DNA of 64,000 nt from Candidatus Bathyarchaeota archaeon (GTDB lineage Archaea > Thermoproteota > Bathyarchaeia > TCS64), in NCBI GenBank assembly GCA_016930055.1, contig JAFGHP010000091.1:2187-66186 (forward strand), read 5' to 3'. How positions within the stretch are numbered: position 1 is the first letter of the stretch; each line of letters begins with the position of its first letter. Made by a program: the position numbers and the translations under genes. This document shows, piece after piece, positions 12,412-36,430 of the stretch. The notes beneath the pieces were generated by a model that saw only the letters and a program-made list of their open reading frames with translations, ran no database searches and was not told where the DNA came from.

Positions 12412-12454
12412 TAGCATTAATATCTAAATCAAACAATTTTAATTAGGAAACAAA

Positions 12455-12832
12455 ATGAATCCTTATGGTAGTATAACGTTTTTCTATTATAATGACTTGA
12501 AGAAAGCAAATGAATTTTATCAAAATAAGTTACAGTTTACTAAAGTTATTGATGTTGATTTTGCCCAAGTCTATAAAATTTGTGAAGGAGTACATGTTGG
12601 ACTCGTAGATGGTCAAAGGGGAAGTATTAGACCATCAATCGATAAACCAGTAATGTTGAGTCTCTTTGTACAAGATTTAAATGAATGGTATAAAAGAATC
12701 AAGGAAAAAGGAGTAGAAATTTCTAAACCGGTTGAACCTCCTTATTTGAAAATACGTGTTTCAATGTTTAAAGATCCAGAGGGGTATATTATAGAATTAT
12801 TAGAATGGATAATGAAGCCTTACGGTAAATAA
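12455..12832 (+). CDS. VOC/glyoxalase-family protein.
   Basis: Size and pattern fit a beta-alpha-beta-beta-beta module; the identification is heuristic. Confidence 0.6.
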   Translation: MNPYGSITFFYYNDLKKANEFYQNKLQFTKVIDVDFAQVYKICEGVHVGLVDGQRGSIRPSIDKPVMLSLFVQDLNEWYKRIKEKGVEISKPVEPPYLKIRVSMFKDPEGYIIELLEWIMKPYGK

Positions 12833-12878
12833 AACTATATAAACGAATCCTTTTTTTGGTCAAAATCTATTTTTAAGT

Positions 12879-13457: not shown

Positions 13458-13605
13458 AAAGTTCAAAAATAAATTTACTATTTAAATAATTCATCAGTAA
13501 TATACAATTCAGAATTATTATTTGAGATCGGTGTTAAAAATAATACAAACTCAATACACGTGATGCAGAACTGATTTATTCATACCTATGTAATATTGAT
13601 CTGAC

Positions 13606-19380: not shown

Positions 19381-20253
19381 TTAATTGTAAATAATTTCAC
19401 CATTTTTCGAAATAGTAGCTTTTGCATACCTTAGAGCCCAACAACTAATAACAACACCAACTGGTAAACTAGCAGGGTGTCTAGCAGTAAACTCAACATG
19501 TAAATCCAAAACAGTTGGACCTTCACCTAAACCCATCGCACCAATCTCAAGTTGATTCAATTTTGTTAAAAGTTCCTCCTCTATGGCAGCTATATTTGAA
19601 TTACTATTTCTTTTTTTGAATGGTTTTAATAATGCTTTTTTTGCTAGTAACATACAAAGATCTTCACTACCACCAACACCGACACCAACAAAATATGGGG
19701 GACATCCTAAAGAACCTGCATCTGCAACTGCTTCTATAATAAATTTTTTCACACCAACAATGCCTAAACCAGGTTTAATCATTTTATGCACAGATACATT
19801 ACTACTTCCTCCCCCTTTAGGCATAACAATAATCTCTAATTTATCTCCGGATACTAGCTCTAAATAAATTATGGGAATATTTCCATCTTCACTAGTATTA
19901 TCACCCGTATTACCTTTGAATATGTCTACAGAGTTCGGTCGAAGAGGAATTTTTTCAGTCGCTCTTCTTGTAGCTGTTCTAAGGATTTTTTTAAGGTTAG
20001 AACGAATCGGAAAATCGTCGCCTAAAGTTATAATATATGATATTACACCAGTATCTTGGCAAATAGGGCATTCAGATTTTTTTGCTAGTTCGGAATTTGT
20101 TATCATACTTCTTAATTGTGCTTGACCAACTGCTCCATTTGTTGTAGTCAATATTTTTTTTAATTCTTCTAAGAATTCCGTAGGTAGTTCAGTAACTGAT
20201 TTTTTTAATAATTCAACAGCCGTATCTTCAACTATTTTTTCAAGGTTAATCAT
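19381..20253 (-). CDS. fumA: Class I (Fe-S) fumarate hydratase / tartrate dehydratase, alpha subunit.
   Basis: The ECPICQDTG cluster motif is present, and the length and surrounding pattern fit the FumA N-terminal domain. Confidence 0.8.
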   Translation of the reverse strand: MINLEKIVEDTAVELLKKSVTELPTEFLEELKKILTTTNGAVGQAQLRSMITNSELAKKSECPICQDTGVISYIITLGDDFPIRSNLKKILRTATRRATEKIPLRPNSVDIFKGNTGDNTSEDGNIPIIYLELVSGDKLEIIVMPKGGGSSNVSVHKMIKPGLGIVGVKKFIIEAVADAGSLGCPPYFVGVGVGGSEDLCMLLAKKALLKPFKKRNSNSNIAAIEEELLTKLNQLEIGAMGLGEGPTVLDLHVEFTARHPASLPVGVVISCWALRYAKATISKNGEIIYN

Positions 20254-20846
20254 TTCATTTCACTGATCAGTTTTTCTTTTTTATTGTTTACATTACTCAG
20301 AATTTTTGCAGTAAGATTAGAACCATGTGAATCTATGGTGACAATCATTGGTCCAAAGTTTTCCACTTCATATACCCATAAACATTCAGGCATCCCCAAT
20401 TCGTCCAACCAATAATAATTTTTAACTTTTTTTATTCCCTGAGCTGCTAATAATGCGGCACCACCTGTAAAAGAACCATAAATACAACCAAATTTTCGAC
20501 ACGCATTAACTGTACGTTCACCCATACCGCCTTTCCCTATAAGTACTGAAGGACGATAATATTCAATAAAAAGATCTTCAAACATCTCCATTCTATCACT
20601 AGTTGTTGGACCAGCAGCTACAACTTTCCATTCATTTTCTGTTTTCTTCATTATTGGTCCACAATGAAAAATTGCTAATCCTTTAAATTCGATTGGTGAC
20701 CTATTTCCTGATTCGTATAGTTCAATTGCTTTTTTATGAGCTTCATCACGAGCCGTTACAATTGTTCCAGAAATAAAAAAAACATCACCAATTTCGAGTT
20801 TCCTTACTTCAAATTCAGGTATAGGAGTCATTAAATGATATTCCAT
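20250..20846 (-). CDS. fumB: Class I fumarate hydratase, beta subunit.
   Basis: GTIVTARDEAHKK...IFHCGP fits the beta subunit. It overlaps fumA by 4 nt, suggesting translational coupling. Confidence 0.8.
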   Translation of the reverse strand: MEYHLMTPIPEFEVRKLEIGDVFFISGTIVTARDEAHKKAIELYESGNRSPIEFKGLAIFHCGPIMKKTENEWKVVAAGPTTSDRMEMFEDLFIEYYRPSVLIGKGGMGERTVNACRKFGCIYGSFTGGAALLAAQGIKKVKNYYWLDELGMPECLWVYEVENFGPMIVTIDSHGSNLTAKILSNVNNKKEKLISEMK

Positions 20847-21081: not shown

Positions 21082-21501
21082 ATGTCTTCTGAAAACTCGG
21101 GGCAAATCCTTAAAATAAATGCGGAAAATAAAGAATTTAAAGAAAAAATTCAAGATTTAAGCGGAGAAAAAATTGACCTATGTTTCCAGTGTGGAGCATG
21201 TAGTTCAGGATGTCCAATGGTACAAGAGATGGATTATTTACCATCAAAAATTATTAGAATGTCTCAATTAGGTTTAAAAGAAGTTTTATCAAGTAAAACT
21301 ATTTGGGTCTGTACAACTTGCTTTAATTGTGAAGTTAGATGCCCAAGAGGAATAGACATAGCAAATGTAATGGAAGCTATTCGTCAGGTGGTTTTAAGAC
21401 AAAAGTTTGACAAAGTTAACATCGATATGCTTACACCAGAGGAACTTAGAGAACTCCCCCAAATTGCTATAGTCAGTAATCTTAGGAAACTTACAGCGTG
21501 A
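21082..21501 (+). CDS. HdrC-like 4Fe-4S dicluster protein.
   Basis: CFQCGACSSGCP and CTTCFNCEVRCP are the two cluster motifs. Confidence 0.75.
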   Translation: MSSENSGQILKINAENKEFKEKIQDLSGEKIDLCFQCGACSSGCPMVQEMDYLPSKIIRMSQLGLKEVLSSKTIWVCTTCFNCEVRCPRGIDIANVMEAIRQVVLRQKFDKVNIDMLTPEELRELPQIAIVSNLRKLTA

Positions 21502-21507
21502 TGTACT

Positions 21508-22410
21508 ATGAGGTTAGCATATTATCCAGGATGTACACTTAAAACAACTGCAAAAAGTTTTGATATCTCAACATTAGAAAGCTCTAAAACATTAGGTATT
21601 GATCTGATTGAACCTGAGAGGTGGAATTGCTGTGGAACAGTTCATGCCCTCTCTAAAGATGATGTTATGCACCATTTGGCACCAATCCGTAATTTACTCA
21701 GGATAGAAGAAATGAAAAAGACAGGTATTGTTGAAGAGAGTAAAGTAATAACTGTTTGTGCAATGTGTTACAATACCCTGAAAAGAGCTAATCTAGTTTT
21801 TAATTCTGATTCCGATAAAGTAAAAAAAATTAATGAAAACATGGAAAACGAATCTTCAGTTTATAACGGATCTGTACAAGTGGAGCATTTATTGGAAACA
21901 ATAAAACATCAAGGATGGGATAACCTTAGAAATAAGGTCAAAATTCCATTAAAAGATCTTAAAGTTGCACCATATTATGGATGCTTATTATTAAGACCAA
22001 GAGGTCTAGGCATAGATAATGCCGATAAACCATCAATAATGGAAGATATGATAAGAGCATTGGGTGCTGAACCCATAGACTTTGCTTATAAACAAAAATG
22101 TTGTGGAAGTTATCATACAGTATTTATGAAAGAAAGGGTAGCTGATTTAAGTTATAAAATATTAAATCAAGCAAAAATTGCTGGCGCAGAAATAATAGTT
22201 ACTGCTTGTCCTCTATGTGAATTTAATTTAAGTCATCGGCAAACAGAAATTATTAAAAATAGAAGTGAGTTTAAAGAATTCCCAGTTATATACTTCACCC
22301 AATTAATAGCTTTAGCATTAGGGCTAAAAGAGGATTCAATGGTTTTTGGGGAAAATAAAACTGACCCAAGACCTCTCTTCAAGTATAAGGGTTTTTTAAA
22401 GGAGATATAA
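21508..22410 (+). CDS. HdrB-like protein with two CCG domains; an SdhE/TfrB-type subunit.
   Basis: The two Cys-rich repeats are YYPGC...CCGT...CAMC and YYGC...CCGS...CPLCEF. Confidence 0.8.
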   Translation: MRLAYYPGCTLKTTAKSFDISTLESSKTLGIDLIEPERWNCCGTVHALSKDDVMHHLAPIRNLLRIEEMKKTGIVEESKVITVCAMCYNTLKRANLVFNSDSDKVKKINENMENESSVYNGSVQVEHLLETIKHQGWDNLRNKVKIPLKDLKVAPYYGCLLLRPRGLGIDNADKPSIMEDMIRALGAEPIDFAYKQKCCGSYHTVFMKERVADLSYKILNQAKIAGAEIIVTACPLCEFNLSHRQTEIIKNRSEFKEFPVIYFTQLIALALGLKEDSMVFGENKTDPRPLFKYKGFLKEI

Positions 22411-22412: not shown

Positions 22413-23102
22413 ATGTCAAAAAACAACAACGATTTTGTTACCATCTATGTAATGGGAAAAAAACAGAAAGTTCCAGCAGACCTCACAATAATGAAAGCAA
22501 TGGAATATGCAGGTCATCAATTTATTAGAGGATCAGGTTGTAGAGGAGGCTTCTGTGGAGCATGTGCAACAGTATATAGAATGAGGGGAAGTTACAAACT
22601 TCAAGGAGCCCTAGCTTGTCAGAAACAAGTTGAAGAGGGAATGATTATTGCTCAGATTCCTTTTAGTCCATCTGAAAAAATTACTTATAAATTAAATGAA
22701 ATTAAAGCAAATGCAAATACTTTCCTAGAATATTTCCCTGAAATTGCTCGATGTTTGTCATGCAATACTTGTACAAAAGCATGTCCTCAAGATATTATGG
22801 TAATGGATTATGTACAAGCAGCTCTTCGAGGCGACATCAAATTAGCTGCAAAGTTAAGTTTTGATTGTTTAGGATGTGGCTTATGTGCAATGAGGTGCCC
22901 TGCAGAGATTGTGCCTTATAATATTGGGCAATTAGCTAGAAGACTTGAATCAAAATATATTGAAGGACCAACAGAGCAAGTGCTTTCAAGATGTGAAGAA
23001 ATTAAAGAAGGAAAATATGACAAAGAAATTGAATCTCTCAAAAATGCTGACAAAGAGACTTTAATTAAACTCTATAATTCAAGGGAGATGAAAAATGAAT
23101 GA
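22413..23102 (+). CDS. frdB: Succinate dehydrogenase / fumarate reductase iron-sulfur subunit.
   Basis: The 2Fe-2S box is CRGGFCGACA. The 4Fe-4S boxes are CLSCNTCTKACP and CLGCGLCAMRCP. Confidence 0.85.
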   Translation: MSKNNNDFVTIYVMGKKQKVPADLTIMKAMEYAGHQFIRGSGCRGGFCGACATVYRMRGSYKLQGALACQKQVEEGMIIAQIPFSPSEKITYKLNEIKANANTFLEYFPEIARCLSCNTCTKACPQDIMVMDYVQAALRGDIKLAAKLSFDCLGCGLCAMRCPAEIVPYNIGQLARRLESKYIEGPTEQVLSRCEEIKEGKYDKEIESLKNADKETLIKLYNSREMKNE

Positions 23103-24751
23103 GTGATTTTAAAAGTGGTTATCCTGAATATATGCAAGAAAGCCTAAAAAAAGTATCAGAAACAAGATCTAGTAGATTTGGTAAAGAATTTACTCCAATG
23201 ACTGCAGAACAACGTATACAAATACTAGAAAAATTTCATCCAGATTGGAAACCTCAAATGAAACGAGGTTTAAAAATTGGGCCAAGTAAGGGTATGTTGA
23301 TACCTCATGAGGTAGCTGACATTATTGAATCTCATTCAATGATAAAACATGATGAAATTGATCTAACTAAAATCGATTATGATTTAGATGTTTTAATTAT
23401 TGGGGGAGGAGGGGCAGGTCTAAGTGCTGGCATATTAGCAAAAGAGTCAGGTATACCAGCTGATAAAATTCTACTTGTTCAAAAACTGAGACTAGGGGAC
23501 GCAAACAGTAAAATGGCTCAAGGCGGAATTCAAGCTGCAGACACCTCAATAGATAACCCTGCAATTCATTACCTTGATGTAATTGGGGGAGGACACTATG
23601 CAAATAAACCTGACCTTGTTGAAGCTTTAGTAAAAGACGCTCCGGATGTAATAAAATGGCATGAATCTCTAGGAGTTATGTATGATAAAAATCCTGATGG
23701 TACAATGTTAGAGATTGCGGGAGGAGGAACAAGCAGGAACAGAATGCACAGTTGCAAAGATTATACAGGGCTTGAACTCACTCGTGTGGTTCTTGATGAA
23801 TTTATTAATAAAGAAATAGGATACACAGAATTCACAAGTGCTGTAGAATTATTAATGGATGATAAAGAACAGGTTGCTGGAGCTGTATTATACGATTTAG
23901 AGACAAAAGAATATCATATCGCTAGATCAAAAAGCACAATTTTAGCTACAGGAGGTTTCGGTAGATTACACATCCAAGGATTTGCCACAACTAATCATTA
24001 TGGTGCAACTGGTGATGGTATAGTTATGGCGTATCGTACAGGCGCAATTTTAAGGGATTTGGATTCGACCCAATATCATCCTACAGGCGCAGCTTTTCCA
24101 GAACAAATTGTTGGACAACTAGCAACAGAAAAATTACGTGGTAGAGGAGCACAACCAGTTAACAAATATGGAGAACTTTTTGTATACCATTTAGAACCAA
24201 GAGACATCGAGTCAAGTAGCTATATTCGAGAATGTTATGAAAGAGATAACGGAATAGTTACTCCGACAGGAATGAAAGCAGTTTGGCTTGATACACCCAT
24301 GATAGAAAAAGTAAATGGATCTGGAACAATAGAAAGAGAGTTTGCTGCAATGTTCCGAAATTTTAACAGATGGGGAATAGATATTAGAAAAGAACCCATG
24401 CTTGTCTTTCCAACACTTCATTACCAGAACGGTGGAGTAGAAATAAACGCAAACACGGAAACAAATATTGCTGGGCTTCTTTGTGCGGGTGAAGTCTGCG
24501 GAGGAGTACATGGGAAAAACCGTTTAATGGGAAATAGTCAACTCGAAATCTATGTTTTTGGGCGTAGAGCGGGAAGAGCTGCTGCTAAAAGAGCTTCAAA
24601 AACCAATTTGGGTGAACTGAATCTTAACCATGTTAAAAGATATGATAAATGGCTTGAAGAAGCAGGTATAATTACTGAAAGAAAAAGTCCAATAATATTA
24701 CCTGAATATCGTGGCGAAAAAACACTGAGTCACCAGTTAAAAATTATGTAG
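23099..24751 (+). CDS. frdA: Fumarate reductase / succinate dehydrogenase flavoprotein subunit. It carries a roughly 95-aa N-terminal extension. The FAD site lacks the His that would link FAD covalently.
   Basis: VLIIGGGGAGLSAG is the FAD Rossmann motif. Ser-Lys-Met-AQGGI occupies the place of Ser-His-Thr. The active-site region HYLD...GGHY is present. The start overlaps frdB by ATGA. Confidence 0.85.
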   Translation: MSDFKSGYPEYMQESLKKVSETRSSRFGKEFTPMTAEQRIQILEKFHPDWKPQMKRGLKIGPSKGMLIPHEVADIIESHSMIKHDEIDLTKIDYDLDVLIIGGGGAGLSAGILAKESGIPADKILLVQKLRLGDANSKMAQGGIQAADTSIDNPAIHYLDVIGGGHYANKPDLVEALVKDAPDVIKWHESLGVMYDKNPDGTMLEIAGGGTSRNRMHSCKDYTGLELTRVVLDEFINKEIGYTEFTSAVELLMDDKEQVAGAVLYDLETKEYHIARSKSTILATGGFGRLHIQGFATTNHYGATGDGIVMAYRTGAILRDLDSTQYHPTGAAFPEQIVGQLATEKLRGRGAQPVNKYGELFVYHLEPRDIESSSYIRECYERDNGIVTPTGMKAVWLDTPMIEKVNGSGTIEREFAAMFRNFNRWGIDIRKEPMLVFPTLHYQNGGVEINANTETNIAGLLCAGEVCGGVHGKNRLMGNSQLEIYVFGRRAGRAAAKRASKTNLGELNLNHVKRYDKWLEEAGIITERKSPIILPEYRGEKTLSHQLKIM

Positions 24752-24759: not shown

Positions 24760-27132
24760 ATGTCTTACAGCCCTAAAATCGGAGTTTGGTTATGTGAATG
24801 TGGCGGAAATATAGGTGATGTAGTAGACACTCAAAAAGTAATGGATGAGATAAAAAATCAAGTTCAATTTGTAAAACGTGAACGATACTTATGTAGTAAA
24901 CCAAGTATAGACACAATTAAAGAGATAATCAAAAACGAGAAACTAGAAAGAATAGTTTTAGCTTGTTGTACTCCAAAAATGCATAGAGAAACTTTTTTAA
25001 AAAATGTGATAGAAGAAGGAATAAACCCAGCGTTTCTCGAAATAGTAAATGTTCGTGAACAATGTAGCTGGGTTCATAAAAAAGATCCTGAAGGAGCTAC
25101 TTTGAAAAGTCTGGATCTTATAAAAGGAGCTATATCTCGAATTAAGGAATCAAAAGAGTTACACACAAAACAAATGCATGTCACACAAGAAGTACTAGTC
25201 ATTGGAGGAGGAGTTGCAGGTATTACAACTAGTCTAAGGTTAAGTGAATATGGGCTGAAAGTTCATTTAATTGAAAAAAGTCCAAGCATTGGGGGGCATA
25301 TGATCCAATACCCCAAAGTGTTCCCAACTCTAGACTGCAGTCAATGCATTTTGACACCAAAAATGGCTAGTATAGCTCAGAGCAGTAATATCAATCTCAA
25401 AACATATTCTGAAGTAAAAGAAGTTACCGGGTCACCGGGTAATTTTAATGTAAAAATTTGGGTTAAACCAAGAGGTGTAGATGTCGAAAAATGTATAGGA
25501 TGTGGGGAATGTAGTAGAGTCTGTCCTGTAGAAGCTCCTTCGGAATATGATGAAAGAATTGGAAAAAGGAAAGCAGCCTACATTCCTTTTCCTCAAAGCG
25601 TACCTAGCGTTTATACAATTGATTTTGATAATTGTGTCAGATGTGGTCTTTGTGCAGCGAATTGCCCTCGAGAAGCAATTGACCTCAATGATGAAGGGAA
25701 AATTGAGGAATTAAATGTTGGTGCAATAGTCTTAGCAACAGGTTTTGAATTATTTGATTTAACAAATTTAGTCAATTATGGTTATGGAAGATATCCTAAT
25801 GTAATTACTAGTCTAGAAATGGAACGTATACTAGATGTTAATGGCCCAACAGGAAGCCAGTTGATTGTTCCTAAGACAGGTAGACAAGTTAAAAGTGTTG
25901 TATATGTTTTATGTGCTGGAAGTAGGGACACAGAGGTTGGTCAACCATACTGTAGTAGAGTCTGTTGTCTTTACAGCATGAAGCAAGCTCAACTATTAAG
26001 AGATAGAGGAGTTGATGTCTGGATAAATTATATCGATATACGTTCTCCAGGACGAAGATACGAAGAATTTTATCGTTTAACGCAAGAAAAAGGTGTAAAT
26101 TTTGTTAAAGGAAAAGTAACAGAAATTGAACCAAATGGAGAACAAGTATTAGTAAGATCAGAGGAAATGATGTTAAATAAAATGATGGAAAATGTTGTTG
26201 ACTTAGTAGTTCTTTCACCACCAATCATTAGTTCAGAAGATACAGCTAAGCTATCTGAAATGCTTAAAGTACCAATAGATGAAGACAAGTTCGTTTTAGA
26301 AAAACATCCTAAACTTGATCCAGTGGCTACTAAAAGAGACGGTGTATTTGCAGCTGGTGCAGTTATTGGACCCAAAGACATTCAGTCAACAACTGCAGAA
26401 GCAGAAGGAGCTGCCATGAAAGTAGTTAATTTTCTAGGTATGGCAAGAATAATTGAAGCAAATAAGGCATATTTAGCTAGAAATGAACTATGCGATGGGT
26501 GTGGTAAATGTAAAAAAATATGCCCAGAATCAGCAATTACAATTGTTGAGGATAAACCGGTTTTTAATGAGATTACCTGTTCTGGTTGTGGGGCATGTAT
26601 ACCTGAATGCCCACAAAACGCTCTTGATCAAGAAGGTTTAACTGACATCCAAATTCAAACCCAAATTAAAGGCATATTAAATGATACGAAAGCACCACTA
26701 AAAATAATTGCATTTGTCGAAAAAGAAGTTGTTTACACTGCAATTGATTTAGCAGGACTAGCCAGATTAAGTTATGCTAGTAGTATAAGAATAATTCCTA
26801 TGCCTTCTTTAGCTAGAATCAAATTAGAGCATATACTCTATGCTTTTTCTTATGGTGCAGATGGTGTAATGATGTTAGAAGCTCCTATACATGAAGGCCC
26901 ATATGGGAATGCTCATAAAATTTCAGAGGAAAGAGCTGAAGAATATAAATGGGCTTTAGAAGATTATGAGATAGATAGTAGTAGATTATGGTATAGTAGA
27001 GTATATGTTCCTGATTGGAGAAAACTAGAACGAATTTTTAACACGTTTCATGAAATGGTAGAATCGGAAGACCCAATCGAAGGAAACCAAAGAGGAAAAA
27101 TACTAAAAAATTTATTAAAAATAAAAGATTAA
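24760..27132 (+). CDS. hdrA: Heterodisulfide reductase subunit A-like flavoprotein with a C-terminal cysteine-less MvhD-like domain.
   Basis: An N-terminal Cys domain (IGVWLCECGG) is followed by an FAD domain (VIGGGVAGITT). An inserted ferredoxin and a C-terminal ferredoxin (CDGCGKCKKICP, CSGCGACIPECP) are present. The tail aligns to MvhD with all Cys substituted. Confidence 0.85.
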   Translation: MSYSPKIGVWLCECGGNIGDVVDTQKVMDEIKNQVQFVKRERYLCSKPSIDTIKEIIKNEKLERIVLACCTPKMHRETFLKNVIEEGINPAFLEIVNVREQCSWVHKKDPEGATLKSLDLIKGAISRIKESKELHTKQMHVTQEVLVIGGGVAGITTSLRLSEYGLKVHLIEKSPSIGGHMIQYPKVFPTLDCSQCILTPKMASIAQSSNINLKTYSEVKEVTGSPGNFNVKIWVKPRGVDVEKCIGCGECSRVCPVEAPSEYDERIGKRKAAYIPFPQSVPSVYTIDFDNCVRCGLCAANCPREAIDLNDEGKIEELNVGAIVLATGFELFDLTNLVNYGYGRYPNVITSLEMERILDVNGPTGSQLIVPKTGRQVKSVVYVLCAGSRDTEVGQPYCSRVCCLYSMKQAQLLRDRGVDVWINYIDIRSPGRRYEEFYRLTQEKGVNFVKGKVTEIEPNGEQVLVRSEEMMLNKMMENVVDLVVLSPPIISSEDTAKLSEMLKVPIDEDKFVLEKHPKLDPVATKRDGVFAAGAVIGPKDIQSTTAEAEGAAMKVVNFLGMARIIEANKAYLARNELCDGCGKCKKICPESAITIVEDKPVFNEITCSGCGACIPECPQNALDQEGLTDIQIQTQIKGILNDTKAPLKIIAFVEKEVVYTAIDLAGLARLSYASSIRIIPMPSLARIKLEHILYAFSYGADGVMMLEAPIHEGPYGNAHKISEERAEEYKWALEDYEIDSSRLWYSRVYVPDWRKLERIFNTFHEMVESEDPIEGNQRGKILKNLLKIKD

Positions 27133-27204: not shown

Positions 27205-28542
27205 ATGAGTAACTCCGTAGAAGAAGAATTATTGAAAAAGGCTCAAAAATGGAGTTCAGTAGCTTCTCCTCTTCATAAATTTTATTCAGGAAAAGTTGAA
27301 GTAATGCCCAAATGCATTATTAATAGTCTAAATGATTTTAATATTTGGTATACTCCTGGAGTAGCTCAAGTTTGTCAGGAGATTGAAAAAGATAAAGAAA
27401 AAGCATATGATTACACAAGTAAATGGAATTATGTTGCAGTAGTGAGTGACGGAACACGTGTACTTGGTCTTGGAGATATAGGCTCCCATGGTAGTTTACC
27501 TGTGATGGAGGGTAAAGCACTTTTATTCAAATACTTAGGAGGGGTTGATGCTTTTCCTATTTGTTTAGGTACAAAAAATCCTGATGAAATAATTCAAGCA
27601 GTAAAATGGATCGAACCAAGTTTTGGCGGAATAAATCTAGAAGATCTTTCAAGCCCAAAATGTTTCTACATATTGGACAATCTTAGAAAAGAGATGCCTA
27701 TACCAGTTTGGCATGATGATCAGCAAGGTACAGCTGCAGTAATTCTTGCAGGTGCAATTAACGCACTTAAATTGGTGGGTAAAAAACTAAAAGAGGCTCG
27801 TTTTACTATTGTAGGTGCGGGAGCTGCAAATACTCGTACTTTTTATGTTTTACAAGCAGCAGGTGTTGATACAAAAAATATTATGATAACTGACAGTTCT
27901 GGGATTTTGAGTTATACAAGAGACGATTTGAAGGGAAGTTATAAATGGGATTTGGCTTTAAAATCGAATCCTGAGGGATTAGAAGGAGATATTAGAGACG
28001 CTGTTAAAGGAAGCGATATTCTAATTGCTGCAAGCCGATCAGGCCCTAACACAATATTGAAAGAGGATCTAAAGGAAATGGCATCAAATGCTATAGTTTT
28101 TGCTTGTGCAAATCCAATTCCAGAAATATGGCCATGGGAAGCAAAGAAAGCAGGGATTAGAGTGTTTGCTACGGGTCGAAGCGACTTTCCTAATCAAGTA
28201 AATAATAGTCTTGTATTTCCAGCTATATTTAGAGGAGCATTGGATGTAAGAGCCAAAACGATAAGCGATGAAATGTGTATATCTTCAGCCATAGCTTTAG
28301 CAAAATATGCAGAAGATAAAGGGTTACATGAGGAGTATATTATACCAAAAATGGATGAGTGGGAAATATATCCTATCCAAGCTACTGAAACAGGATTGAC
28401 AGCCATTAATCAAGGTTTATCAAGAAGAAAATTATCTAGAGAAGAATTATTTAATAATTCACAAAATATTATAAAAAGAACTCAAGACATAGTTAAACTT
28501 TTAATAAAAAACGAATTTATCAAACCTCTTCCTTCAATTTAA
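27205..28542 (+). CDS. NAD(P)-dependent malic enzyme.
   Basis: [12 protein letters not shown] and TIVGAGAAN are the NAD-site motifs, and the length is right. Confidence 0.85.
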
Positions 28543-28777: not shown

Positions 28778-31777
28778 ATGAAACCTGTCCTAGTTATTGG
28801 CGGTGGCATCACTGGTATCCAGACTTCTTTGGATCTAGCAAATAGAGGAATTAAAGTTCACCTTATAGAAAAAACATCAAGTATAGGAGGAGTAATGTCC
28901 CAACTTGATAAAACTTTTCCTACAAACGATTGCTCAATGTGTATTCTAGCTCCCAAAATGATCGAGTGTTCCCGAAATGAAAACATAAAGATTCACACTA
29001 TGAGTGAAGTCATTGAAATAAAAGGGGAAGCAGGGGATTTTAAAGTAAAAATAATCGAACACCCTAGGTCTGTTGATGTCGAGAAATGCACTGGTTGCGG
29101 TATTTGTTCAGAGAAATGCCCCATTAAAGTAAGAAGCGAGTATCAATCTGGAACAGGTTATCGTAAAGCAATATATTTACCATTTCCACAAGCTGTTCCA
29201 CTTATCGCAACTATTGATAGAACTAATTGTTTATGGTTTAGTAAAGAGATTTGTCGAATATGTGAAAAATTTTGTCCATCTAAGGCAATTAATTATGATC
29301 AAGTAGAAACTATCTCTGAAATTGAAGTTGCTAGTATTGTTTTAGCACAAGGAGCTGAAGCTTTTAATCCAGAGGTATTAACTGAGTATGGTTATGGGGT
29401 TTATCCCAACGTAGTAACTTCTTTGGAATTTGAACGCATTATGAGTGCAACTGGTCCTTTTAATGGTCAAATCTTACGTTCAAGTGATAAAATTAAACCA
29501 AAAAAAATTGCTTTTTTACAATGTATTGGTAGCAGAGATAGTAGAGTAGGGAATTCGTATTGCAGTAGTGTTTGTTGTATGTATGCAATTAAAGAAGCAG
29601 TTATAGCTCAAGAACATGATCCTAATTTAGATACCACAATTTTCTTTATTGATATTAGGGCATTTGGTAAAGAATTTGAAGACTATTACACTCAAGCTGA
29701 AAAGGGAAATAAAATTAGATTTATAAGAAGTAGAATATCAAGTATCGAAGAAATTCCAGAAACAAAAAATCTTGAAATATCATATGAATCAAATGGAGAA
29801 ATTAAGAAAGAAATTTTTGATATGATAATTTTAAGCGTAGGTTTAGAACCTCCTAAAGAATTGAATAATTTTTCACTATCTATTGATTTAAAGTTAAATA
29901 AATATGGATTTGTACAAACAGAGAATTTTTCGCCAGTCGATACTTCATTACCAGGAATATATGTTGCTGGTGTTTTAAGCGGACCAAAAGATATTCCAGA
30001 TAGTATTTCTCAAGCATCAGCAGCAGCTGTAAGAGCTGCAAGTAATTTAAGGATAGAATATGAAGAAACTAATTATTCAATTTATCAAGAAAAAAATGTT
30101 GAAGATAAAATTCCTAGAATAGGTGTATTTGTTTGTCATTGTGGTACAAATATTGGTAGCGTTGTAGATGTCCCTAGTGTCGTTGAATATGTAAAAAATC
30201 TTCCAAATGTTATATACGCTGAAGAAAATTTATTCACATGCAGCCAAGACACGCAGAAAAAGATAATTCATTTAATTAAAGAACATGAACTGAACAGAAT
30301 TGTAGTAGCAAGTTGTTCACCAAGAACTCATGAAGCTCTTTTCCAAGCTACTTTACAGGAAGCAGGGTTAAATCCATATTTATTTGAAATGGCGAATATC
30401 CGAGATCAATGTAGCTGGGTACACATGCATGAACATGAGAAAGCCACTCAGAAAGCTAAAGATCTTGTAAGAATGGCAATATCTAAAGCTAGGTTATTAA
30501 AACCGTTAACAAAACCTGTAACAAATGTAACACAATCTGCTTTAGTAATTGGTGGAGGCATTAGTGGTATTACTGCTGCTCTGGAGATTGCTGACCAAGG
30601 TTATTTAGTCCATTTAGTAGAAAAAGAAGGTGAATTGGGCGGTAATTTTAAGAAAATAAAATATCTGCCTTCAGGTGATGATCCTGAAAAGTTCCTGAAA
30701 AATTTAAAATCACAAGTTAGTGAAAATAAAAATATAATAACGCATCTTAATTCAAAAATTAATAGTATTTTCGGTTATTTAGGAAATTTTGAATCTGTAA
30801 TCAGTAAAGATAAAGAAACAACCCGGATAAAACATGGCGTAGTTATTGTAGCAACGGGTGGTCTAGAATATAAACCCAAAGAATATCTATATGGTACCCC
30901 AGGTATTATAACCCAATTAGAATTTGAAGAATTATTAAGCAAAAGCTACAAACCAGAAAGCATTGTAATGATACAATGTGTGGGTAGCCGGTGTGAAGAA
31001 CGTAGTTATTGTAGTCGTATATGTTGTACAGGTGCAATAAGTAATGCTTTAAAAGCTAAGGAATTAAATCCTGATTCTGAAATATTTATTTTATTTAAAG
31101 ATATTAGAACCTATGGCTTCAAAGAAGATTATTATAGAGAAGCTGCAGAAAAGGGAATAATTTTCATTAGATATGATGACGAAAATAAACCAGAAGTAAG
31201 TAATGATGGTAAAATAAAAATTAATGTTTTAGATCCTGTACTTAAACAAAAACTAGTTATAAACCCTGAAGTATTAGTTTTAAGCTCAGCAATTATACCA
31301 CAAGAAGATTCAAAAGAATTATCAGGGATTTTAAAAGTGCCACTTAGTAAAGATGGCTTCTTTTTAGAAGCTCACATGAAGTTAAGGCCTCTTGATTTCG
31401 CTACTGAAGGAATATTTTTGTGTGGCCTTGCCCATGCACCAAAAACAATTGATGAATGTATTAGTCAAGCTCTTGGTGCTGCAGCTCGCTCCATAACAAT
31501 TCTAAGTAAAAAAGAAATTGAAACTGAAGGAGTCATAGCGATAGTAGATGAAAAAATTTGTTGTGGATGTCAATTATGTCTAAATGTCTGTGAATATAAT
31601 GCAATTGAGATTAGAAATATAGAGGGTAAAATGCGAAGCCATATTATTCCTGAAATTTGTAAAGGATGTGGAGTATGTGCTGCAACATGCCCGAGTGGAG
31701 CTATTACAATTGGGCATTTCACCGATGATGAGATTTTAAGTCAAATAAAAAATGCTTTCAAAGAGGTAATTGCATGA
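28778..31777 (+). CDS. hdrA: Tandem-duplicated HdrA-like flavoprotein of 999 aa.
   Basis: There are two FAD Rossmann motifs, LVIGGGITGIQT and LVIGGGISGITA. An internal HdrA N-domain (IGVFVCHCGTN) and ferredoxin boxes are present. Confidence 0.85.
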   Translation: MKPVLVIGGGITGIQTSLDLANRGIKVHLIEKTSSIGGVMSQLDKTFPTNDCSMCILAPKMIECSRNENIKIHTMSEVIEIKGEAGDFKVKIIEHPRSVDVEKCTGCGICSEKCPIKVRSEYQSGTGYRKAIYLPFPQAVPLIATIDRTNCLWFSKEICRICEKFCPSKAINYDQVETISEIEVASIVLAQGAEAFNPEVLTEYGYGVYPNVVTSLEFERIMSATGPFNGQILRSSDKIKPKKIAFLQCIGSRDSRVGNSYCSSVCCMYAIKEAVIAQEHDPNLDTTIFFIDIRAFGKEFEDYYTQAEKGNKIRFIRSRISSIEEIPETKNLEISYESNGEIKKEIFDMIILSVGLEPPKELNNFSLSIDLKLNKYGFVQTENFSPVDTSLPGIYVAGVLSGPKDIPDSISQASAAAVRAASNLRIEYEETNYSIYQEKNVEDKIPRIGVFVCHCGTNIGSVVDVPSVVEYVKNLPNVIYAEENLFTCSQDTQKKIIHLIKEHELNRIVVASCSPRTHEALFQATLQEAGLNPYLFEMANIRDQCSWVHMHEHEKATQKAKDLVRMAISKARLLKPLTKPVTNVTQSALVIGGGISGITAALEIADQGYLVHLVEKEGELGGNFKKIKYLPSGDDPEKFLKNLKSQVSENKNIITHLNSKINSIFGYLGNFESVISKDKETTRIKHGVVIVATGGLEYKPKEYLYGTPGIITQLEFEELLSKSYKPESIVMIQCVGSRCEERSYCSRICCTGAISNALKAKELNPDSEIFILFKDIRTYGFKEDYYREAAEKGIIFIRYDDENKPEVSNDGKIKINVLDPVLKQKLVINPEVLVLSSAIIPQEDSKELSGILKVPLSKDGFFLEAHMKLRPLDFATEGIFLCGLAHAPKTIDECISQALGAAARSITILSKKEIETEGVIAIVDEKICCGCQLCLNVCEYNAIEIRNIEGKMRSHIIPEICKGCGVCAATCPSGAITIGHFTDDEILSQIKNAFKEVIA

Positions 31778-32190
31778 CGGATTTTGAGCCAAAAATTATT
31801 GGTTTTTTATGCAATTGGTGTAGTTACGCTGGAGCAGATCTTGCAGGAGTAAGTAGGTTTCAATATCCACCAAATATGAGACAAATCAGAGTAATGTGTA
31901 GTGGACGAATTCATCCAAGTTTTATCCTTCAAGCTTTCAAAGAAGGAGCAGATGGAGTGCTTGTTGCTGGTTGCCATACACCAAACGATTGCCATTATAT
32001 TTCTGGAAATTTTAAAACAGAACGCCGTGTAGCTATTCTAAAAAAATTATTAGAACAATTAGGCTTAGAACCAGAAAGGCTTAGACTTGAATGGATTAGC
32101 GCGTCTGAAGGCGAAAAATTTTCCAAAACAGTATTAGAAATGACTAATGAGCTCCGAAAACTTGGACCAAGCCCAATCAAAGAGGAGTAA
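31774..32190 (+). CDS. mvhD: Methyl-viologen-reducing hydrogenase delta subunit.
   Basis: IIGFLCNWCSYAGADLAG...CSGRI...GCHTPNDCHY is the MvhD signature. Confidence 0.85.
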   Translation: MTDFEPKIIGFLCNWCSYAGADLAGVSRFQYPPNMRQIRVMCSGRIHPSFILQAFKEGADGVLVAGCHTPNDCHYISGNFKTERRVAILKKLLEQLGLEPERLRLEWISASEGEKFSKTVLEMTNELRKLGPSPIKEE

Positions 32191-32192
32191 AA

Positions 32193-32696
32193 ATGACTGA
32201 AATAATTTTTAATGAAGATACAAAACGTTTCAGAGATAGTATCCTAAAAATTGGTGGGGCTGAAAGGCTCATGTTATGTTATCAGTGTGGTACATGCACT
32301 AATGATTGCCCGGTAGCCAAACGTATTGAAGAGTTCCGTCCCAGAAATATTGCTAGATTAGCTATGTTTGGCCAGAAACAACAATTGTTTTCAAGCGATC
32401 TTTTGTGGCTTTGTGCAGGATGTTATACATGTTATGAACACTGTCCCCAAAAAGTACATGTTTCTGAGATAATATCAGCACTAAGAAGATTAGCATTTAT
32501 TGAAGGAAAAATACATCCAACAATAAAATCTCTGTTAACAGCATTATCGCGTTATGGTTATATTATGGAAATAGGAGAATTTGAAAATGAACTTAGAGAA
32601 GAAGAAAATTTACCACCAGCACCTGAACCTGCAATTAATGAAATCTCAACAATAATGGAAAAAACTGGAACATTAAAAAAAGTTGGAGGGAACTAA
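32193..32696 (+). CDS. hdrC: Heterodisulfide reductase subunit C.
   Basis: CYQCGTCTNDCP and CAGCYTCYEHCP are the two cluster motifs. Confidence 0.85.
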   Translation: MTEIIFNEDTKRFRDSILKIGGAERLMLCYQCGTCTNDCPVAKRIEEFRPRNIARLAMFGQKQQLFSSDLLWLCAGCYTCYEHCPQKVHVSEIISALRRLAFIEGKIHPTIKSLLTALSRYGYIMEIGEFENELREEENLPPAPEPAINEISTIMEKTGTLKKVGGN

Positions 32697-33567
32697 TTTT
32701 CTAAAGTATGCGTTTTTTGTAGGATGCACAACTCTTGGTCGTCTCCCTGGATACGAAAAATCTACTCGTAAACTTGCTGCAACACTTGGAATAGAATTGG
32801 TTGACATGCCTAATTCAAGTTGTTGTGGTACAACATATATGGAAGGAGTCGATGAATTAACTGCTTTAAGTTTAGCAGCAAGAAACATATGCATTGCAGA
32901 GGATATGGGCTTAAACATTTTAACAATATGTAATGGATGTACTGAAACTTTAACAAAAACTAATAAAATATTAAAAGAAAATCCTGAAAAATTAAAAAAA
33001 GTAAATGAAATACTTAAAGATACAGGAAGAGAATTTAAAGGAACAGTTGAAATAAAGCATCTATTAAGAATTTTAAAAGAAGACTATGGTTTAGAAAATT
33101 TAAAGAAAGCTATTGTTAAACCCTACAAAAGTCTAAAGGTAAGCACCCATTATGGATGCCATTTACTGAGACCATCAGATGTCATGAGTTATGATGATCC
33201 CAATCAACCAACTTCAATGGATGAAATCATTGAAATAACAGGGGCAAAAAGCGTTCAATATCCCGGAAAAATGGATTGCTGTGGAGGCCCGATTATGGGA
33301 ATAAGAGAAGACGTAACTTGGGCTATGGGACTAGAAAAGATTGAGGTTGTTAACAAATATGCCCAAGCACTGGTCACATCATGTCCCTTCTGTTTTATTT
33401 CCTATGAAAGAGCTCAATTGATGATTGACAACCAAAAAAAGTTACCAATTATACATCTCCCACAAATTTTGGGACTCAGCTTAGGTTTATCTGAAGAGGA
33501 TATAGGATTAAGGGATAACAAAATAGATTCTTCTTTTTTAAAAAATAATTTGGAGGCTCGAAAATAA
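32683..33567 (+). CDS. hdrB: Heterodisulfide reductase subunit B, with two CCG domains.
   Basis: The two repeats are FFVGC...SCCGT...CNGC and THYGCH...DCCGG...CPFCF. Confidence 0.85.
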   Translation: MEGTNFLKYAFFVGCTTLGRLPGYEKSTRKLAATLGIELVDMPNSSCCGTTYMEGVDELTALSLAARNICIAEDMGLNILTICNGCTETLTKTNKILKENPEKLKKVNEILKDTGREFKGTVEIKHLLRILKEDYGLENLKKAIVKPYKSLKVSTHYGCHLLRPSDVMSYDDPNQPTSMDEIIEITGAKSVQYPGKMDCCGGPIMGIREDVTWAMGLEKIEVVNKYAQALVTSCPFCFISYERAQLMIDNQKKLPIIHLPQILGLSLGLSEEDIGLRDNKIDSSFLKNNLEARK

Positions 33568-34532
33568 ATAAATTAAACTTTGGTTTTTACTGGGCTGCAA
33601 GTTGTGGAGGATGCGAAATCGCAGTTTTAGATATAGATGAAAAAATTCTTGAAATATTGGAGATAGCGGATATTGTTTTCTGGCCAGTTGCCATGGATAT
33701 CAAATATAAAGAAGTTGAAAATATGTTGGATGGTTACATTGATGTATGTTTCTTCAATGGAGCAATTCGAAATTCAGAACAAGAATATCTAGCAAAATTA
33801 TTGAGAAGGAAATCAAAAATCTTGATCGCTTTCGGAGCTTGTGCACAGTTAGGAGGAATCCCAGGATTAGCAAACATATTTAGTGCAGAAGAAATCTTCG
33901 AAACAATATATCATAGCACTCCTTCAACCAACAATACTTTAAAAATTGAACCGAATGAATCAACAAAAATTGTCGAAGGCATATTAGAGCTACCAACATT
34001 TTATGATGAAGTTAAACCTCTCGATAAAATTGTGCAAGTTGATTATTATATTCCAGGATGTCCACCACCACCTAAATTGATTATTCAAGCAGTAGAAGCA
34101 ATAAGATCGAATAAACTTCCTCCAAAAGGGAGTATTCTTGCACCAGAAATAGCGGTTTGTGATGAATGCCCTAGAAAAAAAGAAGATAAAAAAATTTCAG
34201 AGATTAAAAGGGTGTTAGATTTTGTACCAGATTCTGAAAAATGTCTTTTAGAACAGGGTATAATATGCATGGGACCAGCAACTAGGGGTGGATGCGATGC
34301 TAAATGTATTCAAGCAAACATGCCATGTACAGGATGTGGTGGACCTTGTCCAAACATAGAGGAGCAAGGAGCAGCAATGATTAGTGCTCTGAGTACGGTT
34401 TTAGGAATAGGAGAAGAAAAAGACGAAAATTATTCAGTTAATAATTTAATTTCGCAACTCAAGGATCCATTAGGAACTTTCTATAAGTATACTTTACCAT
34501 CATCAATAATTAAAAAAAGGTATAAAAAATGA
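33564..34532 (+). CDS. mvhG: [NiFe] hydrogenase small subunit of the F420-non-reducing Mvh type. The start codon appears to be ATA, so the coordinate is uncertain.
   Basis: The N-terminal NFGFYWAASCGGCEIAVLD box lies upstream of the TTG the ORF tool used. Distal cluster motifs CMGPATRGGCDAKC and CTGCGGPCP are present. Confidence 0.8.
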   Translation: MNKLNFGFYWAASCGGCEIAVLDIDEKILEILEIADIVFWPVAMDIKYKEVENMLDGYIDVCFFNGAIRNSEQEYLAKLLRRKSKILIAFGACAQLGGIPGLANIFSAEEIFETIYHSTPSTNNTLKIEPNESTKIVEGILELPTFYDEVKPLDKIVQVDYYIPGCPPPPKLIIQAVEAIRSNKLPPKGSILAPEIAVCDECPRKKEDKKISEIKRVLDFVPDSEKCLLEQGIICMGPATRGGCDAKCIQANMPCTGCGGPCPNIEEQGAAMISALSTVLGIGEEKDENYSVNNLISQLKDPLGTFYKYTLPSSIIKKRYKK

Positions 34533-35986
34533 AAACAATTACAATTGATCCAATTACTAGGCTTGAAGGCCATGGAAAAATAACCATCTTCCTAAATAAA
34601 GAAGGAGATGTTGAGAACGCGTTTCTTCAGATTCCGGAATTACGTGGATTCGAAAAATTCTGTGAAGGAAGGCGTGCTGAGGATATGCCAATAATCACTC
34701 CAAGAATATGTGGTGTATGTCCTGTAGCTCATCATTATGCTGCAACTAAGGCGCTTGACGCTGCATTCGAAGTGAAACCAACTGAAACCGCTAAGAAACT
34801 TAGGGAATTAATGTATATGGGTTATATTATTTATGATCATATTCTTCATTTCTATTTTCTTGGAGGACCAGACTTTATTGTTGAACCAGGTTCCCCTGCT
34901 ACTGAAAGAAATGTCTTTGGTGTATTTAAAAAAGTTGGATTAGATGTCGGTAAAGAAGTTATTAAACACCGTGCATATGGACAAAAAATTACTGAAATTA
35001 TTGGAGGTAAAGCAACTCACCCAACTTGTGGGATCCCAGGAGGTATAAGTAAAGGTTTAACAGAAGATGAACGCATCAAAATTGAAGACATGGCAAAAAG
35101 CAGCATCAATTTTTCTAAATTTACCTTAGAAATTTTTGATAAAATTATTTTAAAAAATTCTAATTATCTAGATTTAATAAATGATAATTCCTTTAAATTA
35201 GATTCATACAACATGGGTTTAGTAGATTCTTATAATAATGTCAATTTTTATGAAGGCGTTCTTCGAGTAACGGATCAAAAAGATCATGAAATTAGTAGAT
35301 TTAAAGCAGAAGATTACCTAAATCATATTGAAGAGCATGTAGAGTCTTGGACATATAGCAAGTTTGTTTATTTAAAAAAAATTGGTTGGAAAGGGCTTAT
35401 TGCTGGAACTGAAAGTGGTGTATATAGAGTAGGTCCACTAGGAAGATTAAATGTAGCAGAAGGTTTTGCTACTCCTCTAGCAAATAATGAGTATAAGCGG
35501 ATGTTCAAAACATTTGGCGTAAAACCTATACAATCAACTTTAGCGTTTCATTGGGCTCGAATAATAGAGCTGCTTTATGCCTCAGAAAGAGCTTTAGAAT
35601 TGGTTCTAGATAAAAACATTACAAATACAGATTTAAAGAATCCAATAGGTAAACCAAGTGAAGGAGTAGGAGTTGTGGAAGCTGCAAGGGGTGTCTTAAT
35701 CCATCACTATAAACTTGACAATGAAGCGATCATTAAAAAAGCTAACCTCATTGTAGCGACAACAAACAACTACGCTGATATTTGTATTAGTATACGTGAT
35801 GCAGCTAGGAAAGTTATTCAAAAAGGGAAGGTTTCTGAGGGACTTTTAAATCAAATAGAAATGGCTTTCAGAGCATATGATCCATGTTTTGGATGTAGTA
35901 CTCATAGTCTACCAGGTAATAGTCCCCTTACTGTAATGATATATAATTCTGAGAAAAAATTAATTAAAGAATTAAAGAGGAATTAG
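34529..35986 (+). CDS. mvhA: [NiFe] hydrogenase large subunit.
   Basis: The N-terminal RICGVCPVAHH and the C-terminal DPCFGCSTHS are the Ni-Fe ligand boxes. A C-terminal tail is present for protease cleavage. Confidence 0.9.
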   Translation: MKTITIDPITRLEGHGKITIFLNKEGDVENAFLQIPELRGFEKFCEGRRAEDMPIITPRICGVCPVAHHYAATKALDAAFEVKPTETAKKLRELMYMGYIIYDHILHFYFLGGPDFIVEPGSPATERNVFGVFKKVGLDVGKEVIKHRAYGQKITEIIGGKATHPTCGIPGGISKGLTEDERIKIEDMAKSSINFSKFTLEIFDKIILKNSNYLDLINDNSFKLDSYNMGLVDSYNNVNFYEGVLRVTDQKDHEISRFKAEDYLNHIEEHVESWTYSKFVYLKKIGWKGLIAGTESGVYRVGPLGRLNVAEGFATPLANNEYKRMFKTFGVKPIQSTLAFHWARIIELLYASERALELVLDKNITNTDLKNPIGKPSEGVGVVEAARGVLIHHYKLDNEAIIKKANLIVATTNNYADICISIRDAARKVIQKGKVSEGLLNQIEMAFRAYDPCFGCSTHSLPGNSPLTVMIYNSEKKLIKELKRN

Positions 35987-35989
35987 TTT

Positions 35990-36430
35990 TTGCGAGGACT
36001 AGTTATTGGAATAGGAAACATTCTAAGAACAGATGATGGTGTTGGATTACATACTTTAAAAAAAATAAAGAAGATTCTACCAGACTTTGATACCGTTGAT
36101 GTAGGTTTAGGGAGTATAGAAATTCTTGATCATATACAGGGTTATGATTTGATTTTCATTATTGATGCAATTGAAACTGGTGGAAAACCGGGTACAGTGT
36201 ATAAAATAGATCTTTCAAAAAATCAAGTTCCCCCAGAAATAAATTATAGTCATGGAATCGATATAGTTACAACATTAAAATTAGGGCAATTATTTGTAGA
36301 TAAACTCCCAAAAATAATTTTGTTAGCTGTAGAAGCTGAAGATGTTTTAACATTCAGTGAAGAATTAACACCGAAAGTAAAAAAAGCAATCAAAGAAATT
36401 ATAAAAGAAATTAATAATTATAGTAAATAA
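35990..36430 (+). CDS. Hydrogenase maturation endopeptidase of the HycI/FrhD/HyaD family.
   Basis: GIGNILRTDDGVG fits, the size fits, and it sits directly after the large subunit. TTG start. Confidence 0.75.
   Translation: MRGLVIGIGNILRTDDGVGLHTLKKIKKILPDFDTVDVGLGSIEILDHIQGYDLIFIIDAIETGGKPGTVYKIDLSKNQVPPEINYSHGIDIVTTLKLGQLFVDKLPKIILLAVEAEDVLTFSEELTPKVKKAIKEIIKEINNYSK

Follow-up and report, generated by a model that had tools for sequence, protein, structure and literature searches.

What can an electron-transfer domain be doing once every ligand of its cofactor has gone? The question is raised by a stretch of 64,000 nucleotides from Candidatus Bathyarchaeota archaeon (assembly GCA_016930055.1, contig JAFGHP010000091.1, positions 2,187 to 66,186), hereafter the window. 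In it, an open reading frame (ORF) of 790 residues (24760..27132, + strand) encodes the heterodisulfide reductase (Hdr) subunit HdrA with a domain of the MvhD family fused to its C-terminus. We call the gene hdrA*, its product HdrA*, and the fused domain MvhD*. In the Mvh-, Fdh-, and Elp-Hdr complexes, MvhD or ElpC is the connector on a mobile arm, and its [2Fe-2S] cluster is the last relay before the flavin adenine dinucleotide (FAD) at which bifurcation takes place (PMC12350162). MvhD* has the fold of MvhD and not a single cysteine. A previous inspection of these letters (the sequence-only reading) had noticed the missing cysteines and had proposed a structural or adaptor role, for example one tied to the use of FrdAB in place of a hydrogenase as the partner of HdrA. 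We show below that the loss of the ligands is genuine and widespread, that the tail is under strong selection, and that the loss is not tied to FrdAB.

The identity of the tail is clear. The Pfam profile PF02662 (FlpD/MvhD) matches residues 649-768 (26704..27063, +) over profile positions 1-120 of 123 (E 2.1e-24, 86.3 bits for a cut-off of 22.3). The window encodes a true MvhD as well (31774..32190, +), canonical in sequence (187 bits on PF02662), which served as the internal reference for the intact protein, and to which the tail is 36% identical (BLASTP, E 1e-12). The reference has cysteines at positions 13, 16, 42, 67, and 73. Read in register, C13 becomes E654 and C16 becomes V657 (26719..26730, +; CNWC is replaced by EKEV), C42 becomes S683 (26806..26808, +; MCSGR is replaced by MPSLAR), C67 becomes A708, and C73 becomes G713. 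The last two positions lie in a remodelled loop, LEAPIHEGPYGNAH (residues 706-719; 26875..26916, +), which takes the place of the cluster loop GCHxxDCHY. In total, HdrA* has 28 cysteines in residues 1-640 and none in residues 641-790. The alignment with the neighbouring MvhD and the replacement of every cluster-binding cysteine had been read from strings that sit at residues 648-666, 680-687, 699-709, and 714-719, and both statements hold: the profile match is significant, and no different, unrelated domain was recognised in the tail.

The fold tells the same story. An AlphaFold2 model of the tail, computed from an alignment that included true MvhDs, has a mean predicted local distance difference test score (pLDDT) of 91 and a predicted template modelling score (pTM) of 0.86. 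A Foldseek search of the Protein Data Bank (PDB) with this model retrieved 5odh_D with a template modelling score (TM) of 0.88 (root mean square deviation of 2.0 Å over 135 columns) and 8rvu_F with a TM of 0.90; across the solved MvhD chains 5odh_D, 8rvu_F, 5odc_D, and 7bkb_F the range is 0.84-0.90. Only MvhD chains match at E < 1e-8, the next PDB matches being at about 1e-3. When the C-terminal ferredoxin domain of HdrA* was modelled together with the tail (residues 560-790, pTM 0.90), the tail was predicted to pack on that domain as a rigid unit. The expectation that a cysteine-less domain could keep the docking fold while being unable to bind the cluster is thus borne out by the model and by the absence of any cysteine.

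To place this pattern within the family, the ligand positions were surveyed in the best 150 representatives of the 885 matches (E up to 1e-3) from an exhaustive profile search. All four ligand positions are cysteines in 86 representatives, and 11 fragments have cysteine wherever they are covered; 36 representatives have no cysteine at these positions, 11 fragments also lack it, and 6 show a mixed pattern. Many true MvhD domains read C-x-C-C-C, which means that the second cysteine is dispensable and that the four others (C13, C42, C67, and C73 in the reference) are the ligands that matter. All four are lost in HdrA*. Given this, MvhD* very probably carries no [2Fe-2S] cluster. Among the mixed cases, the HdrA tails of three JGI fragments (P0125, P0127, and P0132) read D-C-S-C-S at the five positions, and could be intermediates between cysteine-bearing and cysteine-less tails, or hold a different site.

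Has the domain simply lost its function? We scanned one genome per GTDB species with two tail motifs, one of them VYVPDWRKL (residues 748-756; 27001..27027, +), and obtained 67 loci. The 54 full-length orthologues recovered from them are 776-817 residues long and all carry the tail in frame. Averaged over columns, the most common residue has a frequency of 0.83 in the MvhD-like domain and likewise 0.83 in the FAD/thioredoxin reductase (TrxR) core, as against 0.73-0.75 for the two ferredoxin domains. VYVPDWRKL is invariant in the alignment of this close family, and only one cysteine in total occurs past residue 645 among its 55 sequences. The loop of residues 706-719 follows the pattern L-E-A-P-x-H-E-G-P-Y-G-x-A-H, with no variation at L, E, A, P, E, P, G, A, and H and almost none at H711. 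In the 25 closest pairs listed, the ratio of non-synonymous to synonymous substitution rates (dN/dS, NG86 method) lies between 0.008 and 0.105 in the tail and between 0.016 and 0.15 in the core, with the exception of one outlier pair that probably involves a frameshifted sequence. Hence, the tail is under purifying selection as strong as that acting on the catalytic core.

These values bear directly on the simplest alternative, namely that the tail is a decaying, functionless relic of an HdrA2-type fusion, or an artefact. The loss of all cofactor ligands from the tail is what one would expect of a relic, but dN/dS values of 0.01-0.1, a column conservation equal to that of the FAD core, and 54 full-length in-frame orthologues refute decay. 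An assembly or annotation artefact is ruled out by the 67 loci and by an identical hdrA* protein, with the same neighbours, on an independent public contig (Logan SRR13394437). We give this explanation next to no credence. Since the fold is kept, the ligands are gone, and purifying selection is strong, a non-redox role, structural or adaptor, is the natural reading of the tail. This part of the earlier proposal is supported; the part that links it to FrdAB replacing the hydrogenase is not, as discussed below.

The rest of the protein looks like a working HdrA of the bifurcating type, as judged from its sequence. The core (residues 1-640; 24760..26679, +) has the full canonical set of domains: a cluster domain at the N-terminus, the FAD/TrxR domain, an inserted ferredoxin domain, and a further ferredoxin domain at the C-terminal end. 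From residue 4 to residue 643 it aligns throughout with HdrA chains of known structure (8rvu_a, its residues 11-656, E 1e-179; 5odc_A, E 7e-178). Each of the 28 core cysteines is kept in at least 95% of the 55 family members, including C193 and C196 in FPTLDCSQC (a CSxC motif with the trans-ligand of the N-terminal cluster) and the eight cysteines of the C-terminal ferredoxin domain (C578-C617). Cysteine ligands for six [4Fe-4S] clusters are present, among them the equivalent of the trans-ligand Cys197. The residues E356 and K409 are involved in flavin-based electron bifurcation (FBEB) in HdrA (PMC12054007), and their equivalents in HdrA* align with those of solved HdrA (in SLEMERIL and CCLYSMKQAQ). 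It is because the 28 cysteines are kept and the core aligns over its full length, including these E and K residues, that we judge it to be competent for bifurcation. Among the curated families, the best NCBIfam match of HdrA* is the HdrA2 model NF040770 (residues 6-770, 829 bits), under its cut-off of 1100; the scores on NF041891 (705 bits for a cut-off of 1300) and NF041778 (622 bits for a cut-off of 1400) are also below threshold.

The core also allows one to consider a role of the tail in oligomerisation or regulation, for instance in contacts of the HdrA dimer, where it would resemble the MvhD-like N-terminal domain of HdrA. The MvhD seed profile does match HdrA N-terminal domains (residues 35-150 of P0209 and 46-90 of P0223), and C193 and C196 are kept; their equivalent Cys197 is the ligand provided in trans to which canonical HdrA owes its obligate dimeric state. 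The predicted rigid packing of the tail on the ferredoxin domain of its own chain points instead to an intramolecular role, and we regard this explanation as very unlikely.

If the loss of the cysteines were an adaptation to FrdAB, cysteine-less tails should be found only where frdAB is found. The close family, whose tails are 65-73% identical, is mostly found in Bathyarchaeia, and also occurs in Borrarchaeum, Sifarchaeum, Baldrarchaeota, and Odinarchaeota. Yet, more distant cysteine-less tails are widespread: they account for more than 100 clusters at 90% identity, and in them the first three places once held by cysteine are taken by Asp or Glu, Ile or Val, and Ser (D/E-[IV]-S), with VPS in place of MCS. 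The serine at the position of S683 is common to nearly all cysteine-less tails. The HdrAs to which these distant tails are fused have 770-800 residues and come from Methanobacterium and Methanobrevibacter, from Methanocella conradii and M. arvoryzae, from Methanoperedenaceae, and from one metagenome-assembled genome (MAG) of Nitrososphaerales. The two loci examined in Methanobacterium and Methanoperedenaceae have a plain hdrC-hdrB-hdrA operon around the cysteine-less hdrA. Even within the close family, a Baldrarchaeota locus (L054) encodes an HdrA* with the tail motifs EAPEHEGP and VYVPDWRKL and has no frdAB within 10 kb. Its operon has a molybdopterin oxidoreductase upstream (652 residues, FdhA-like; 4280..6238 of that locus, +), preceding hdrC-hdrB-hdrA* and without FdhB nearby, and a GcvH-like protein and thioredoxins downstream. 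The survey suggested by the sequence-only reading thus recovered cysteine-less tails widely, and they are not limited to FrdAB loci. The claim that the loss of the cysteines is tied to the FrdAB partner fails on these loci: the occurrence of such tails without frdAB in Methanobacterium, Methanoperedenaceae, and Baldrarchaeota rules out a trait specific to this partnership, and a rationale specific to FrdAB does not explain its origin.

In neighbour-joining trees built without support values, every cysteine-less tail groups apart from the cysteine-bearing tails, and the tree of the core does not resolve whether the cysteines were lost once or repeatedly. One of the loci, on contig DATKWY010000225.1, has a complete archaeal-type operon in a MAG labelled as bacterial (Candidatus Desulfaltia). 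This label is probably a binning error; otherwise it would indicate a transfer.

How do these proteins compare with characterised HdrAs? The closest known architecture is that of HdrA2 of Methanosarcina acetivorans (type Ia or A2-1, NF040770), in which a PF02662 domain is likewise appended to the C-terminus of a complete HdrA. The sequence-only reading had pointed to Methanosarcina HdrA2 as a fusion with intact cysteines, which is correct: all five are present (Yan et al. 2017, Fig. S3), in CNWC...MCS...GC...ECHY, whereas HdrA* has none and thus lacks the [2Fe-2S] motif of the fused MvhD. The iron and sulfide measured in purified HdrA2 agree with the presence of a [2Fe-2S] cluster, and the function of its fused MvhD was stated to be unknown (PMC6019823). 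HdrA2 has been characterised with HdrB2C2 only, whereas the operon of HdrA* also includes frdBA. The separate MvhD, VhuD, and ElpC subunits of the Mvh-, Fdh-, and Elp-Hdr complexes share with MvhD* the fold, the Pfam family, the GADG motif, and scaffold residues, but they are independent polypeptides that hold a [2Fe-2S] cluster beside the bifurcating FAD, while MvhD* is fused and free of ligands.

The long HdrAs of Methanobacteriales, with relatives in Methanocella and Methanoperedenaceae, share with HdrA* a cysteine-less MvhD-like tail, in their case with the D/E-[IV]-S signature. They differ in the core, which reads FSPEKLAEEC instead of FPTLDCSxC, in the loop of the tail, which is short and variable (GEYPDEVMY, GEGSSGDPKK) and comes without EAPEHEGPYG and VYVPDWRKL, and in the examined operons, which consist of hdrC-hdrB-hdrA only. 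These proteins are part of curated families: P0209, P0367, P0404, and P0435 are cysteine-less and pass the cut-off of NF041891, named "ferredoxin:CoB-CoM heterodisulfide reductase subunit HdrA" in NCBIfam. A 2025 survey of 1,152 HdrA sequences filed the Methanobrevibacter proteins of 770 residues in class A2-1 alongside HdrA2, and all the Methanobrevibacter HdrAs of about 770 residues that we recovered are cysteine-less.

The trait may extend to Methanosarcina. Among the entries of Table S2 in PMC12054007 is an A2-1 HdrA of Methanosarcina (858 residues) with FSPDKLAEEC, the core signature of the cysteine-less methanogen clade. On cysteine-less proteins, the alignment with the NF041778 profile continues through the tail, but it ends at about position 715-720 on P0097, a cysteine-bearing relative of HdrA2. 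Since the core signature is present and this profile runs through cysteine-less tails, Methanosarcina HdrA1 probably has such a tail as well. The best 120 matches of a search with the full-length profile included Methanobacteriales, Methanocella, and Methanoperedens, whereas Methanosarcina was absent from them.

The architecture is a variant of the HdrA-MvhD fusion already known; it is widespread and included in curated families, and it is the loss of the ligands itself of which we found no mention: no description of it in MvhD tails was found in the literature searched, which did not cover the review of HdrA modules by Appel et al. (2021). Redox modules that have lost their cofactor and are kept in Hdr complexes have a precedent in ElpA, which lacks molybdopterin, and in a Cys-less Molybdop clade found next to type II hdrA. 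These resemble MvhD* in this respect but belong to another protein family, for which the cofactor-less state has been described.

Of the contexts in which the cysteine-less tail occurs, the most interesting is the Frd-linked operon found in Bathyarchaeia and Asgard archaea, to which the gene of the window belongs. In the window, this operon starts with hdrC1 (21082..21501, +), encoding a short HdrC-like protein with two [4Fe-4S] motifs (TIGR03290, E 7e-24), and hdrB1 (21508..22410, +), whose HdrB- or SdhE-like product has two CCG domains (two stretches of PF02754). The latter scores alike on the SdhE model NF042965 (164 bits) and on the HdrB model TIGR03288 (154 bits); SdhE is the CCG-domain subunit of type-E fumarate reductases, called a "membrane anchor" in NCBIfam. 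There follow an frdB-like gene for an iron-sulfur subunit with a [2Fe-2S] and a dicluster motif (22413..23102, +; Fer2 and Fer4 matches) and an frdA-like gene for a flavoprotein (23099..24751, +; PF00890, E 8e-66), which directly precede hdrA*. The FrdA-like protein matches solved SdhA/FrdA chains (E 1e-54 to 1e-46), and its best NCBIfam match is TfrA (313 bits), under the cut-off of 718. It has an N-terminal extension of 93 residues, and the matches to the TfrA and SdhA profiles reach no further than about position 423 of 546, which suggests that it lacks the C-terminal domain usual in such proteins.

The operon is flanked by genes of fumarate and malate metabolism. A divergent class I fumarate hydratase, with its alpha and beta subunits, lies upstream (19381..20846, −; PF05681 and PF05683), and a malic enzyme directly follows hdrA* (27205..28542, +; PF00390 and PF03949, NF009501 E 9e-92). 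The gene set hdrC-hdrB-frdB-frdA-hdrA* is conserved in Bathyarchaeia and in Borr- and Sifarchaeia. The fumarase adjoins it upstream and the malic enzyme sits downstream in most loci, and the complete order, from fumAB to the malic enzyme, is kept in about 45 of the 67 species-level loci with enough flanking sequence, including those of Borrarchaeum and Sifarchaeum.

Which branch of the Hdr complex would FrdAB be connected to? The three small subunits jointly tile the profile of TfrB, the FrdB-like protein covering positions 20-182, HdrC1 positions 118-220, and HdrB1 positions 262-482. Together with the FrdA-like protein, whose best match is TfrA, they look like the thiol:fumarate reductase TfrAB in four polypeptides, with HdrA attached. 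TfrAB of Methanothermobacter is a soluble, Hdr-related enzyme that reduces fumarate; in the window TfrB is split in three genes, HdrA is added, TfrB is matched only piecewise by three proteins, and the FrdA-like protein, with its extension and its truncated match, stays below the TfrA threshold. The tiling most likely places FrdAB on the HdrC/HdrB branch, which is the high-potential one, and not at the entry site used by MvhD. As the scores are sub-threshold, the assignment of a fumarate reductase activity to the operon would be based on the gene context, that is, on the fumarase and the malic enzyme.

This placement matters for the idea, put forward by the sequence-only reading, that the tail evolved as an adaptor that docks FrdAB instead of the Mvh hydrogenase at the entry of HdrA, or that excludes free MvhD. 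The idea has some appeal: MvhD physically connects different donor modules, namely Mvh, Fdh, and Elp (PMC12350162), the close family has its own invariant motifs (EAPEHEGPYG and VYVPDWRKL) and is almost always beside frdBA, and, since a true MvhD is encoded 4.6 kb downstream of hdrA* along with another Hdr and MvhAG, telling two HdrAs apart could matter. Still, we consider it unlikely. The D/E-[IV]-S tails of Methanobacterium and Methanoperedenaceae occur in operons without frdAB, and the identical motif variant is found in Baldrarchaeota and Odinarchaeota, where the operon examined also lacks it. In addition, a partner at the entry site would have no relay to the FAD without the [2Fe-2S] cluster, and by the Tfr-like tiling FrdAB belongs on the side of HdrC and HdrB.

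We therefore favour, at somewhat better than even chances, a reading in which the tail is a redox-silent structural module with the MvhD fold, fused in cis to a complete, bifurcation-competent HdrA, with FrdAB on the HdrC/HdrB branch. MvhD* cannot hold the [2Fe-2S] relay that precedes the FAD, and HdrA* would thus not be fed by the canonical MvhD route. The domain would be kept as part of the architecture, to hold the arm together, to occupy or present the surface of MvhD, or both; in the solved Hdr complexes the C-terminal ferredoxin domain belongs to the mobile arm that carries MvhD. The predicted packing of the tail on this ferredoxin domain is what one would expect were it to stand in for MvhD in cis. 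That the tail is a structural module at the MvhD site is a probable part of this reading. Electrons would most likely pass from the HdrA FAD to the HdrA [4Fe-4S] cluster, to HdrC1, to HdrB1 or FrdB, and then to the FAD of FrdA and to fumarate, while the inserted ferredoxin domain would be the place of electron exchange with ferredoxin. Fumarate, made from malate by the adjacent fumarase, would be the high-potential acceptor on this branch, which we also find probable. Any mid-potential donor would react directly at or near the FAD, like F420H2 with HdrA2.

Several points weigh against this reading. The eight cysteines of the C-terminal ferredoxin domain, which bind HA1 and HA2 on the canonical input path, are fully conserved, and would be needless if this path were dead, unless folding alone requires them. 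Where the cluster used to sit, the His/Glu-rich loop is invariant, a degree of conservation beyond the needs of a passive scaffold. The FrdA-like protein and the Hdr subunits are all below the curated cut-offs (TfrA, TfrB, HdrB, and HdrC). Moreover, the placement of the tail in MvhD's position in cis, as well as the contact of FrdB with HdrC1, is an inference. The kept HA1/HA2 cysteines and the His/Glu loop leave room for a docking adaptor or a new metal or ligand site.

The second of these options deserves attention because of the loop. E707, H711, E712, and H719, together with E654 and S683, might bind another metal or cofactor, or form a site for a hydride donor such as F420H2. The loop is invariant in the family and lies exactly where the cluster loop GCHxxDCHY used to be; there is a weak likeness between the MvhD fold and lumazine synthase (Foldseek E about 1e-3, TM about 0.4-0.5), and the mechanism by which F420H2 is oxidised by type Ia HdrA has yet to be settled (PMC12054007). 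This loop is however not kept in the cysteine-less tails of methanogens, and the likeness to lumazine synthase is marginal, which makes such a site distinctly unlikely in our view. A bolder version of the whole, in which the operon encodes an undescribed flavin-based electron-bifurcating fumarate reductase and the redox-dead MvhD module, with its remodelled His/Glu loop, has taken up a new job, either docking a partner or offering a new site for a ligand or donor, is possible but doubtful.

The second Hdr/Mvh cluster of the window (28778..36430, +) contains, in this order, a tandem type II hdrA with two TrxR/FAD modules (999 residues; 28778..31777, +), the true mvhD, hdrC2, hdrB2, mvhG, mvhA, and an ORF of 146 residues (35990..36430, +) that is only assumed to be a maturation protease. 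Several related loci, among them L005, L007, L012, L018, and L068, have a similar second Hdr cluster after the gene for malic enzyme. Directly downstream of the cluster in the window lies a gene for a lipoate-protein ligase (37057..38061, +). In the Baldrarchaeota locus, the GcvH-like lipoyl carrier and two thioredoxins (10508..10984, −, and 12080..13878 of that locus) lie beside hdrC-hdrB-hdrA*. Such lipoyl/Hdr neighbourhoods recall the sHdr-LbpA systems of sulfur oxidisers. The substrate of HdrB in these non-methanogens may be a protein-bound dithiol.

The remainder of the window is archaeal and anaerobic in gene content, with a G+C content of about 33%, and the closest relatives of the operon are in Bathyarchaeia. 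It encodes a fragment of RNA polymerase subunit B with Rpb2 domains 5-7 only, indicating a split RpoB (62369..63946, −), Cbf5 (5550..6530, −), an anaerobic ribonucleotide reductase (8963..11227, +), and an aldehyde:ferredoxin oxidoreductase with its ferredoxin (39177..41560, −).

MvhD is treated in the literature as a [2Fe-2S] connector, and the HdrA-MvhD fusions have been described as cluster-bearing, the role of the fused domain being called unknown. A large and strongly conserved clade without any ligand is a natural experiment in this respect, as the role of the fused domain in it is not electron transfer. If this is true, the fused MvhD of a large clade of HdrAs, including those of cultured methanogens, works without a [2Fe-2S] cluster. 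The wiring of these enzymes in metabolic models of methanogens, of the anaerobic methanotrophic archaea ANME-2d, of Bathyarchaeia, and of Asgard archaea would then change, since an input from H2, formate, or an Elp-type module via MvhD would be impossible. In practice, the count of ligand cysteines, zero or four, provides a sequence test by which the A2-1 or type Ia class divides into two groups that differ in function. The Frd-linked operon, for its part, suggests that uncultured sediment archaea may reduce fumarate in a ferredoxin-coupled manner.

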